A stretch of 32,000 nucleotides of DNA. Origin: Geotalea uraniireducens Rf4. GTDB taxonomy: Bacteria; Desulfobacterota; Desulfuromonadia; Geobacterales; Geobacteraceae. Each line of letters starts with the position of its first letter. Position 1 is the stretch's first letter. Location of the stretch: assembly GCF_000016745.1 (NCBI RefSeq), contig NC_009483.1, positions 4,860,001 to 4,892,000 of the forward strand, given 5' to 3'. This document shows positions 929-5,812 of this stretch, piece after piece. The notes under the pieces were generated by a model. That model made no database searches, was not told the origin of the DNA, and saw only the letters and a program-made list of their open reading frames with translations. A program made the position numbers and the translations under genes.

Positions 929-1198
929 TCAGTGCCTCATATTTGCTATCATGCCGTAAATCTCGCGGGTAAAGTCACCCATGTAGCTCATCATCCATGG
1001 GAAGAAGATGACCAGGGCCACCATGACCGCCGCTATCTTGGGGGCAAAGGCGAGGGTCGCCTCATTGATCGAGGTAACCGCCTGGAAGATGCTGATCAGC
1101 AACCCGACGACCAGGCTGAAGATCAGGAGTGGAGCAGACAAAAGGAGCGTCGCCTCAAAACTGCGACGTGCCAGCTGGACAACCAGTTCGGGTGTCAT
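929..1198 (-). CDS. fliQ: Flagellar export gate protein FliQ
   Basis: 89 aa with two TM segments and the FliQ signature IFQAVTSINEATLAFAPKI. ATG start with GGAGG SD (1205-1209). Confidence 0.95.
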   Translation of the reverse strand: MTPELVVQLARRSFEATLLLSAPLLIFSLVVGLLISIFQAVTSINEATLAFAPKIAAVMVALVIFFPWMMSYMGDFTREIYGMIANMRH

Positions 1199-1214
1199 AA
1201 AAAACCTCCGGAAA

Positions 1215-1347
1215 TCAGGTTCGAGGAACGAGGAACGAGGAACGAGGAACGAGGAACGAGGAACGAGGAACGAGGAACGAGGAACGAGGAACGAGGAACG
1301 AGGAACGAGGAACGAGGAACGAGGAACGAGGTTCGAGGTTCGAGGTT
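1215..1347. repeat. Heptanucleotide tandem array: TCAGGTT, (CGAGGAA)x15 perfect, (CGAGGTT)x3 perfect
   Basis: Counted directly. Fifteen uninterrupted CGAGGAA units span 1222-1326, three CGAGGTT units span 1327-1347, and one degenerate unit lies at 1215-1221. The array lies in the 211-bp fliP-fliQ spacer. Confidence 0.95.
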
Positions 1348-1352
1348 ATTTT

Positions 1353-1405
1353 GTCCTTTATCCTCGTTCCTTTATCCTCGTTCCTTTGTTCTCTATCCTC
1401 ATTCC
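1353..1405. repeat. Imperfect 14-nt-period arm complementary to the heptamer array (TTTATCCTCGTTCC x2 plus a decayed copy)
   Basis: CCTCGTTCC (twice) is the exact reverse complement of GGAACGAGG in the array at 1222-1326. The arm begins 5 nt after the fliP stop codon as read on the minus-strand mRNA. Confidence 0.75.
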
Positions 1406-1409
1406 TTTT

Positions 1410-2165
1410 TTATCCAAAACTCTTGACCAGTGAGCCGATGACGAGTCCCCAGCCATCCACCAGGACAAACAGGAGAATCTTAAAGGGGAGTGATATCATG
1501 ACCGGCGGCAGCATCATCATCCCCATGGACATGAGGACCGATGCCACAACCATGTCCAGCACCAGAAAGGGGATGAAAACCAGGAAACCGATCTGGAAGG
1601 CGGTCTTCAGCTCACTGACCATGTATGCCGGAATGAGGGTCAGGGTAGGAATGTCATCGGCGTTTTTCGGACGGGGGAGTTTCGAAAGGCTTAAGAACAG
1701 GGCAAGGTCTTTTTCCCTTACCTGCGAAAGCATGAATTTCCTGACCGGCGCAACAGCTCTTTTGAAAGCTTCTTCCTGGCTGATGGTCTGCGCCTTATAG
1801 GGCTGTAGAGCCTGGGTGTTGATCTGTTGCCATACGGGAGCCATGATGAAAAAGGTCAAAAACAGCGACAGACCGATGATGATCTGATTCGAAGGCGCCT
1901 GCTGCGTACCAATGGCATTTCTTAAAAATGACAGGACCACGACGATGCGCGTGAACGACGTGGTCATCATCAAGAGCCCGGGAGCGAGCGACAGAACCGT
2001 CATCAGGAAGAATATCTGGAGAACCACCGCCACATCGGCAGGCTTGGACACTTTGCCCATGCCGACGCTGACTGTTGGAAGCGCCAGTGGCTCGGCAAAA
2101 GCCGAGGCTGCGGTCAGCATGCACAACAGGATCAAGGCTGTTTTAAAGAGGGTCCCATATTTCAC
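1410..2165 (-). CDS. fliP: Flagellar export gate protein FliP
   Basis: 251 aa with a signal peptide (LLCMLTAASAFA) and canonical FliP blocks (TSFTRIVVVLSFLRNAIGTQQAPSNQ; GFLVFIPFLVLDMVVASVLMSMGMMMLPP). GTGA overlap with the fliO stop. Confidence 0.95.
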   Translation of the reverse strand: MKYGTLFKTALILLCMLTAASAFAEPLALPTVSVGMGKVSKPADVAVVLQIFFLMTVLSLAPGLLMMTTSFTRIVVVLSFLRNAIGTQQAPSNQIIIGLSLFLTFFIMAPVWQQINTQALQPYKAQTISQEEAFKRAVAPVRKFMLSQVREKDLALFLSLSKLPRPKNADDIPTLTLIPAYMVSELKTAFQIGFLVFIPFLVLDMVVASVLMSMGMMMLPPVMISLPFKILLFVLVDGWGLVIGSLVKSFG

Positions 2166-4697: not shown

Positions 4698-4738
4698 AGT
4701 GGGAAGGTCGGGGCTTTATTGGCGCCGGCCTTCCCACT
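4698..4738 (-). terminator. Strong stem-loop immediately after the flgE stop (possible attenuator or 3' stabiliser; no U-tract)
   Basis: AGTGGGAAGG...CCTTCCCACT forms a 10-bp perfect stem, extended by 3 bp after one mismatch, with a 12-nt loop. It begins 10 nt after the flgE TAG. No poly-U follows, so it is not a classical intrinsic terminator. Confidence 0.4.
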
Positions 4739-5633: not shown

Positions 5634-5723
5634 TTGTTGCCTCCTTGTTCTGCCTGTTTGTTGTCGAACACCTCTGTCGGTCGGTGTTCGCGGGCTTCCT
5701 CCGGGAGGTCCAGCCCTTTAAAA

Positions 5724-5769
5724 GTTCGAGGTTTGAGGTTCGAAGTTCGAAGTTCGAGGTTCGAGGTTT
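5724..5769. repeat. Heptanucleotide tandem array GTTCGAG GTTTGAG GTTCGAA GTTCGAA GTTCGAG GTTCGAG GTTT
   Basis: Read directly: 6.5 units of period 7. The unit GTTCGAG/CGAGGTT is the same as in the 1327-1347 segment of the fliP-fliQ array. Confidence 0.9.
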
Positions 5770-5781
5770 AATTGCTTTTGA

Positions 5782-5812
5782 CATCGAACATCGAACATGG
5801 AACGTCGAACAG
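5782..5812. repeat. Period-7 arm CATCGAA CATCGAA CATGGAA CGTCGAA, partly complementary to the 5724-5769 array
   Basis: TCGAAC in this arm is complementary to GTTCGA in the array. The arm sits 2 nt from the stop codon (5815-5817) of the upstream gene. Confidence 0.7.

Follow-up and report, generated by a model that had tools for sequence, protein, structure and literature searches.

Why are fliP and fliQ of Geotalea uraniireducens Rf4, two genes of a flagellar operon, separated by a spacer of 211 nucleotides (nt) that is filled with short repeats? The spacer holds a perfect heptanucleotide array facing an arm that is complementary to it, so that one may ask whether it serves the expression of the genes downstream or is a by-product of repeat turnover. 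The locus was analysed in a stretch of 32,000 nt (contig NC_009483.1, positions 4,860,001 to 4,892,000), called the window, to which all coordinates refer unless a comparison locus (L number) is named. Comparison with closely related strains leads us to regard the array as probably a strain-variable heptanucleotide 'long simple sequence repeat' (long SSR) in a repeat-prone non-coding spacer of a sigma54-driven flagellar operon.

Organization of the fliP-fliQ spacer

The following elements were distinguished in the spacer:

1199..1409, minus strand: fliP-fliQ spacer, 211 nt, non-coding, from the fliP stop to the fliQ start and part of the operon mRNA (from open reading frames (ORFs), Pfam labels of orthologues and a 60-locus baseline)
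1222..1326, minus strand: (UUCCUCG)15 on the mRNA, which is (CGAGGAA)15 on the plus strand; derived unit that underwent expansion in the Rf4 lineage and complements the core of the 5' arm exactly
1327..1347, minus strand: (AACCUCG)3 on the mRNA; older unit, common to all element-bearing relatives and to a second array described below
1348..1353, minus strand: A-rich loop between the arms, AAAAU on the mRNA; AAAATA at the equivalent position in close element-bearing relatives
1354..1406, minus strand: 5' arm on the mRNA; GGAACGAGGAUAAA units with a 14-nt period, of which two copies are perfect and two have decayed

Reading unit by unit gave 15 perfect CGAGGAA copies (1222-1326) followed by three perfect CGAGGTT copies (1327-1347), and Tandem Repeats Finder (TRF) assigned to the heptamer array a period of 7, 15.7 copies and 100% matches. 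With these 15 and 3 perfect units the array has the head-to-tail copies of a 5-11-nt unit and the length beyond chance that characterize a heptanucleotide long SSR. The arm facing it is a perfect 14-nt-period repeat of 2.4 copies (1354-1387, unit TCCTTTATCCTCGT) that decays towards 1406, as seen by TRF and by reading. Its core CCTCGTTCC occurs twice in the 32 kb, both times within the arm, and the complement GGAACGAGG occurs 15 times, all within the array. The complementarity of array and arm is far beyond chance. The order on the mRNA is fliP stop, four GGAAYGAGGAUARA units, A-rich loop, (AACCUCG)3, (UUCCUCG)15, 12 nt, the Shine-Dalgarno sequence (SD) GGAGG and AUG. The G+C content of the spacer (0.51 for 1201-1400) compares with 0.53 for the whole window, and its untranslated C-rich, G-poor tract measures 126 nt with 43% C and 14% G. 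Two plus-strand ORFs cross the array (932-1426 and 1008-1433); both lie antisense to fliQ and are mechanical. A sense ORF of 14 codons within the 5' arm lacks conservation among relatives. A preliminary description of this DNA had already reported the array, which stands as described, and the complementary 14-nt-period arm, which stands too except that its start had been placed at 1353, a few bases off at most (1354 by TRF).

The same description had named an assembly artefact as something that would undo its proposals. The exact count of 15 units does come from the window sequence alone, as short-read unitigs do not span the array. However, Logan unitigs of the independent run SRR9436595 (L128, L130) recover both array junctions, break within the array and hold at least 31 nt of pure repeat at each side, which implies that the array is no invention of the assembly. 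Homologous arrays are moreover present in many independent assemblies, the complete G. daltonii genome included. The probability that an artefact created or inflated the array is therefore regarded as negligible.

Spacer alleles of strains with identical FliQ

Among contigs that encode an identical FliQ protein, six spacer alleles of 17-211 nt were found:

17 nt: L124; no element
63 nt: L121 and L129; minimal hairpin GGAACGAGGATAAAGGCC-AAAATA-(AACCTCG)2AACCTG
80 nt: L123
101 nt: L125
142 nt: L122, L126 and L127; (AACCTAG)10
211 nt: the window; (TTCCTCG)15

The polymorphism in copy number and length that had been predicted for the array is thus present among relatives. Between the window and L122 the identity in fliP and fliQ-fliR is 99.2-99.3%, yet different units were amplified in the two and the arrays are wholly different. 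L123 and L125 share 99.3% identity and differ by whole units on both arms; L123 shows matched changes on its two arms (GGATCGAGG and CCTCGATCC). The element-free L124 is 90-95% identical to the other alleles. The units also differ in their relation to the 5' arm: UUCCUCG is its exact complement, the older AACCUCG leaves A-A mismatches and the AACCUAG of L122 is unable to pair with it. L125 has a single UUCCUCG, L233 has three and the window 15. From the comparison of alleles, the baseline of the species group is a small imperfect hairpin (GGAACGAGGAUAAAGG, A-rich loop, AACCUCG AACCUCG AACCUG), of which different strains amplified different units. The unit is interchangeable at this site, as TTCCTCG, AACCTAG, AACYTYG and GGTGATT have each been expanded. 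All variants were tabulated with regard to a constraint on the 'GAAC' core of the units, which gave about 10 distinct mutational events over most positions, and with so few events so spread no such constraint is claimed.

The element-free allele would also be expected as the empty site of a small mobile element, a Chunjie-type MITE (miniature inverted-repeat transposable element) or a repetitive extragenic palindrome (REP), inserted in the operon. The inverted arms agree with this, as does a length of about 190 nt where Chunjie has 178-235 bp, and Chunjie is known inside an operon in Rf4 (PMC3184786, PMC10969869). However, no target-site duplication is seen: the filled site reads GGATAA/AAAAGG...CCTGATT/TCCGGAGG and the empty one GGATAA/TA/TCCGGAGG. 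The region is not A+T-rich, its arms are made up of variable arrays instead of 21-bp terminal repeats of fixed sequence, the orthologous arrays of other species have only the 3' unit in common, and there is no second copy of the whole element in the 32-kb window. On the missing duplication and the composition the MITE was rejected, being set apart from Chunjie by the latter's description; a mobile origin of either kind is considered extremely unlikely.

Spacer length and content across bacteria and Geobacteraceae

The baseline for spacer length was a set of 60 other diverse fliP-fliQ loci from a metagenome scan with FliP, mostly distant relatives with few close alleles. Their median spacer is 15 nt and the longest 167 nt, against 211 nt in the window, so the spacer had rightly been called unusually long. 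The remaining fliL-to-fliR junctions of the window ORFs overlap or are 2 nt apart.

Within Geobacteraceae, long repeat-filled fliP-fliQ spacers are the rule. In the complete genome of G. daltonii FRC-32 the spacer measures 212 nt; (AACYTYG)9 comes after (GGTGATT)n and 21-nt repeats, and the two arms are not complementary. In L233, a metagenome-assembled genome (MAG) with a FliP identity of 95%, the spacer is 164 nt long and consists of (GGAACGAGGATAAA)4 and mixed AACCTCG/TTCCTCG units. The spacers of L136 (114 nt, (CCTCAA)5), Geomonas paludis (129 nt, 9-nt GGTGGACCC repeats) and G. toluenoxydans (79 nt) complete the series; those of Geomonas and G. toluenoxydans carry other short repeats with arms that are not complementary. 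As the G. daltonii arms are non-complementary and AACCUAG remains unpaired, the 'zipper' hairpin is a property of the Rf4 allele and not conserved.

Two further observations were made in contigs of relatives. L136, from a related Geobacteraceae population, ends in a nonamer array, (ACAAGTCAG)15, that is perfect (1-136). In L137 (1922-1994, FliP identity 76%) the fliP-fliQ spacer of 71 nt has a small G+C-rich stem followed by a T-run, without heptamers, and looks like a weak terminator or attenuator.

A second array upstream of flgE and other Geobacter copies

TRF found only one other period-7 array in the window, and its unit is that of the three CGAGGTT copies of the spacer:

5724..5811, minus strand: second element, with the unit family of the spacer, in the gap that separates flgE from the PF12611 gene ('Flagellar_put'); mRNA (GUUCGAY)4, A-rich loop, (AACYUCG)6

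This element has one unit fewer on each arm in L135. At the same site nothing but (AACATAG)2-3 is present in L133 and G. daltonii, where the 5' arm is missing, G. toluenoxydans has 10 mixed units and Geomonas has none. Elsewhere, an uncultured Geobacter (L055) carries (GGAACGA)4 and an imperfect complementary arm between convergent non-flagellar genes.

Downstream of the second array, the flgE leader (window 5634-5720, minus strand) is conserved from Geotalea to Geomonas (L231, L233, L235, L237, L133). It contains two predicted hairpins, GGGCUGG..CCUCC..GGAGG..GCCC and GAACACC..GGUGUUC, in which pairing is kept at a few positions where both partners have changed. The leader has no match in Rfam and is a candidate cis-regulatory leader.

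Proposed origin of the array

The allele states suggest how the array may have arisen. In the Rf4 lineage one unit of the 3' arm would have turned into UUCCUCG, the exact complement of the 5' arm, probably via template switching within the hairpin (quasipalindrome correction). Replication slippage would then have amplified this unit to 15 copies, and the 14-nt unit of the 5' arm would have been duplicated as well. The states themselves are observed; templated correction of an arm followed by slippage is what we infer from them. The mRNA of the present allele would fold into a register-degenerate stem-loop that leaves about 70 nt of C/U-rich single strand before an independent fliQ SD. Array, unit, length and complementarity are not conserved and one close relative is without the element, which implies that the array is most likely a nearly neutral product of the tendency of this lineage towards intergenic repeats. 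By sequence comparison it appears to belong to a known class that is common in Geobacteraceae, and to be dispensable, with unit and length interchangeable. Any effect on the expression of fliQ, fliR and flhB would be incidental and modest.

Several points weigh against a nearly neutral long SSR. Long repeat-filled spacers occur across Geobacteraceae, as opposed to about 15 nt in most other bacteria, and AACNTNG-type arrays persist at two orthologous intercistronic sites in all Geotalea genomes examined, which may reflect selection. The length of the spacer may have a regulatory effect. The template-switch step would have to be read back from allele states. Finally, the identical 10-copy AACCTAG allele is found in two independent assemblies (L122, L126), which indicates that turnover is not extremely fast; the turnover of the spacer array appears to be fast on an evolutionary scale and not from sample to sample.

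Predicted RNA structure and possible regulatory function

The position of the spacer in the operon is given by these features:

929..1198, minus strand: fliQ, 89 aa, Bac_export_3
1205..1209, minus strand: GGAGG, Shine-Dalgarno sequence of fliQ; on the mRNA it follows the array at a distance of 12 nt
1410..2165, minus strand: fliP, 251 aa; product matches FliP of Geotalea (formerly Geobacter) uraniireducens Rf4 at 100% identity
4504..4519, minus strand: sigma54-type -24/-12 promoter motif TGGCATTGCGGTTGCA, perfect by consensus match, upstream of fliL

The sigma54-type motif is found at the equivalent place in G. daltonii and G. toluenoxydans. From its position upstream of fliL, the fliP-fliQ spacer would lie about 3.1 kb inside a sigma54-driven fliL-fliMNOP-fliQR-flhB transcription unit. 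Between motif and flgE, a 17-nt inverted repeat (AGTGGGAAGGTCGGGGC / GCGCCGGCCTTCCCACT, window 4698-4738) is present just downstream of flgE; it is likely a stem-loop that separates flgE from the fliL promoter region. Phase-variable loci have their SSR in a coding frame or a promoter spacer, where a change in unit number turns expression on or off. The present array is not so placed: it is located after the fliP stop and 12 nt before the fliQ SD, with the promoter about 3.1 kb upstream.

The preliminary description had proposed a copy-number-tuned RNA structure. In its broader form this explanation holds that the stem-loop and the 126-nt C-rich, G-poor tract of the spacer would be a cis-acting RNA element, either a stabilizer or processing site or a Rho-loading (rut-like) site that lowers fliQ-fliR-flhB relative to fliP, with slippage as a heritable rheostat. 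Structure is indeed strongly predicted: folding of the spacer beats shuffled sequences on both strands (z about -5.3 and -5.2), so that a register-degenerate hairpin, as had been suggested, is possible for this allele. The spacer is untranslated and within the operon, its length is polymorphic, and on the sense strand, just upstream of the SD of the next gene, pyrimidine-rich arrays are located at the two loci of the window and in every Geotalea species that was examined. A precedent for tuning by an SSR in the 5' untranslated region (5'UTR) is provided by the AGAT repeats of UspA2 (cited in PMC4679880).

Against this, the close relative L124 has an identical FliQ without the element, the sister strain has AACCUAG, which is unpaired with the 5' arm and less C-rich, and the arms of G. 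daltonii do not match each other. The cost of opening the fliQ SD, taken as ensemble free energy from a constrained partition function, is 4.65 kcal/mol in the window and 4.83 in the element-free allele, and 3.2-5.4 in the other Rf4-group alleles with no trend with length. As the opening energy is independent of the presence and length of the element, occlusion of the SD by the array is unsupported, and sequestration was rejected on these modelled energies, which are a thermodynamic proxy. The GGAGG of fliQ is retained in all Rf4-group alleles (L121-L125, L233), the element-free one included; in G. daltonii, G. toluenoxydans, Geomonas and L136 the SD is GGAG. The export gate has the stoichiometry FliP5:FliQ4:FliR1, which gives no obvious reason for a step down from fliP to fliQ. 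With neither array, unit, length nor complementarity conserved and the SD opening cost unchanged, copy-number tuning is not supported, and a cis-acting RNA element of this kind is rather unlikely. The comparative evidence gives no support to a tunable regulatory role and nothing here shows a switch.

A more specific proposal is that selection maintains the pyrimidine-rich AACNUNG/UUCCUCG arrays at two intercistronic sites of Geotalea flagellar operons, one upstream of fliQ and one upstream of flgE, as heritable slippage-tuned attenuators, acting for instance as Rho-loading sites or as RNA-binding-protein platforms. We consider this improbable. If it were true, the number of repeats would set the output of export-gate and hook genes, a contingency-like rheostat in a free-living subsurface bacterium, and the heptamer-armed hairpins that closely follow stop codons in other phyla would be devices of this kind too.

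The array could also be a platform for a protein, as a plus-strand small RNA (sRNA) that titrates CsrA, an idea put forward earlier, or as a set of DNA sites for a nucleoid or global regulator. The plus strand has 15 evenly spaced GGA motifs, and the architecture is like that of the paired tandem-repeat 'global regulator sites' of G. metallireducens (PMC2700814). However, the consensus units are unlike the G. metallireducens classes, and the GGA motifs are gone from the 99.3%-identical sister allele, whose array reads CTAGGTT on the plus strand, and from L124, where the element is absent. In 800-1700, a scan of both strands that covers sigma70-type promoters only gave no sigma70-like promoter, and there was no intrinsic terminator. 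Rfam had nothing at gathering score in the whole window; a permissive search of 1100-1500 returned only sub-threshold, chance-level hairpin models of eukaryotic microRNAs and nothing CsrB- or RsmZ-like. Of the features by which sRNAs of the CsrB/RsmZ type are recognized, neither a sigma70-type promoter with an intrinsic terminator, nor conserved GGA motifs, nor a family-model match was thus found at this locus. Pfam scans of 20 window ORFs, together with the Pfam labels of the fliL-flhB and flgD/flgE genes, turned up neither csrA nor fliW. The CsrA sponge was consequently abandoned, and a protein platform in general is very unlikely.

The unit outside Geobacteraceae

It had been reasoned earlier that the same array scattered elsewhere would speak for a generic element. 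This is partly the case: apart from 5724-5811 and L055, (CGAGGAA)4 is present at more than 120 loci on genome contigs across many phyla among the matches listed, and for 60 of 141 arrays among those matches two or more TTCCTCG-like units lie no further than 160 nt away. Viral contigs gave 4 loci with (CGAGGAA)4, as compared with 8 and 3 for two composition-matched shuffled heptamers. Of 714 TRF rows from genomes with the unit, 295 have period 7, and these genomes hold many other heptamer units, some of them in inverted pairs; in contrast, unrelated flagellar loci (603 kb) have only 5 period-7 arrays. A CGAGGAA-specific family across phyla was rejected on the counts of the control heptamers and on the abundance of other period-7 units in carrier genomes, and by these comparisons the CGAGGAA unit does not appear to be special.

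Some of the distant arrays have a regular architecture of their own. Among the matches listed, the Gemmatimonadales MAG STL-GEM5 has 9 loci with 11 pairs made of exactly (TTCCTCG)4, a variable centre of 42-82 nt and (CGAGGAA)4. Loci with 4+4 units are L002, L026, L036, L047, L052, L073, L076, L077 and L109, and in L051 and L080 the left arm has 3 units. Where a flanking ORF could be called, the pairs often begin about 5 nt after a stop codon. The fixed count of four copies differs from the variable arrays of Geotalea, and the same MAG also has inverted pairs of other heptamers (GCTGTTA / AGCTAAC). In L031, L042 and L056 (Pseudoxanthomonas, Arenimonas and Luteimonas) long intergenic hairpins were seen with stems (CGAGGAA)3-4 CGAGTG ... 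CACTCG (TTCCTCG)n and a G+C-rich centre. Unrelated bacteria have other units in their flagellar loci: L213 (1893-1973) has GCGAATA and ATTCGCT, heptamers unrelated to CGAGGAA, as an inverted pair of arrays, and L205 (1538-1605) has adjacent, non-complementary arrays of GTAATCA and CCTGATG. A Bacteroidaceae MAG (L028, 1337-3829) has long degenerate AACGATG-like heptamer arrays of up to 43 copies over about 2.5 kb.

Implications

The fliP-fliQ spacer provides a clean natural series of heptamer-repeat turnover in an essential operon, with arrays that are wholly different at less than 1% flanking divergence and one relative without the element. The series suggests a way for arrays to grow, in which one arm of a hairpin is first 'corrected' so that it fits the other, whereupon slippage multiplies the unit thus changed. 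Two long-standing questions, the predominance of 7-nt units among bacterial long SSRs and their frequent arrangement as inverted pairs, could be addressed at this tractable locus, which is also a possible strain-typing marker for Geotalea populations at uranium-bioremediation sites. Its importance would be much greater if it were true that repeat number tunes flagellar gene output.

Comparison with known repeat systems

REPs are fixed-sequence units of 20-40 bp, present in hundreds of copies and associated with RAYT transposases; enterobacterial operons such as malEFG and his transport contain them. Like REPs and the bacterial interspersed mosaic elements (BIMEs), the spacer would form an extragenic, intercistronic hairpin that could protect upstream mRNA; unlike them, it is built of 7-nt units in variable number. 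Two related elements are present in 32 kb.

Chunjie, the MITE of Rf4 (Chen et al., 2008), is 178-235 bp long, has 9-bp direct repeats and is A+T-rich (PMC3184786, PMC10969869). It shares with the spacer the G. uraniireducens Rf4 genome, a hairpin-forming insert of about 200 nt and the tolerance of this insert inside an operon. The spacer has no 9-bp duplication, no A+T-richness and apparently no fixed terminal repeats, the comparison being with Chunjie as described in those papers.

The SSRs of 5'UTRs and promoters, such as the UspA2 AGAT repeats of Moraxella, are similarly transcribed upstream of a start codon and strain-variable in copy number (cited in PMC4679880). In contrast to UspA2, which is a surface antigen, FliQ is a core component of the export gate, and the modelled accessibility of its SD is unaffected by the array. 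The TAACTGA heptamers of Beggiatoaceae, Cyanobacteria and Bacteroidetes (PMC4679880) are also located just upstream of start codons, with a unit scattered over distant phyla; a post-transcriptional role has been proposed for them, not demonstrated (PMC4679880). They differ in their unit and are direct repeats only, with 1 indirect case in 170, whereas a complementary arm is present here.

Within the genus Geobacter, G. metallireducens has paired tandem 7-9-nt repeats on opposite strands, including five MTYCTGA heptamers between proB and proA (Aklujkar, 2009; PMC2700814), and G. bemidjiensis has 6-42-nt direct repeats throughout its intergenic DNA (PMC2996986). The G. metallireducens classes 1-3 and the G. 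bemidjiensis repeats resemble the present element in belonging to the Geobacter family, in being intergenic and in that they can sit within an operon. With the G. metallireducens sites it further shares two tandem sets of 7-9 nt on opposite strands at a variable distance. Their units are GTTGCTYN, TCTCCGTS(Y) and MTYCTGA in a fixed number of 3-5 copies, as against TTCCTCG, AACCTCG and GGAACGAGGATAAA in 3-15 copies here; those sites were read as sites of IHF/HU-type regulators, whereas the spacer has up to 15 copies and strong strain variation.

Among the long SSRs of SSR-rich prokaryotes, those with heptanucleotide units are the most frequent class (Mrazek, Guo and Shah, 2007, cited through PMC4679880). 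Neither the present locus nor its unit was described in that survey, and the array departs from the long SSRs described there in being paired with a complementary arm and in its place between two cistrons of a conserved operon. It agrees with them in its perfect head-to-tail 7-nt copies, its non-coding location, its strain-variable length and a presumed origin by slippage.

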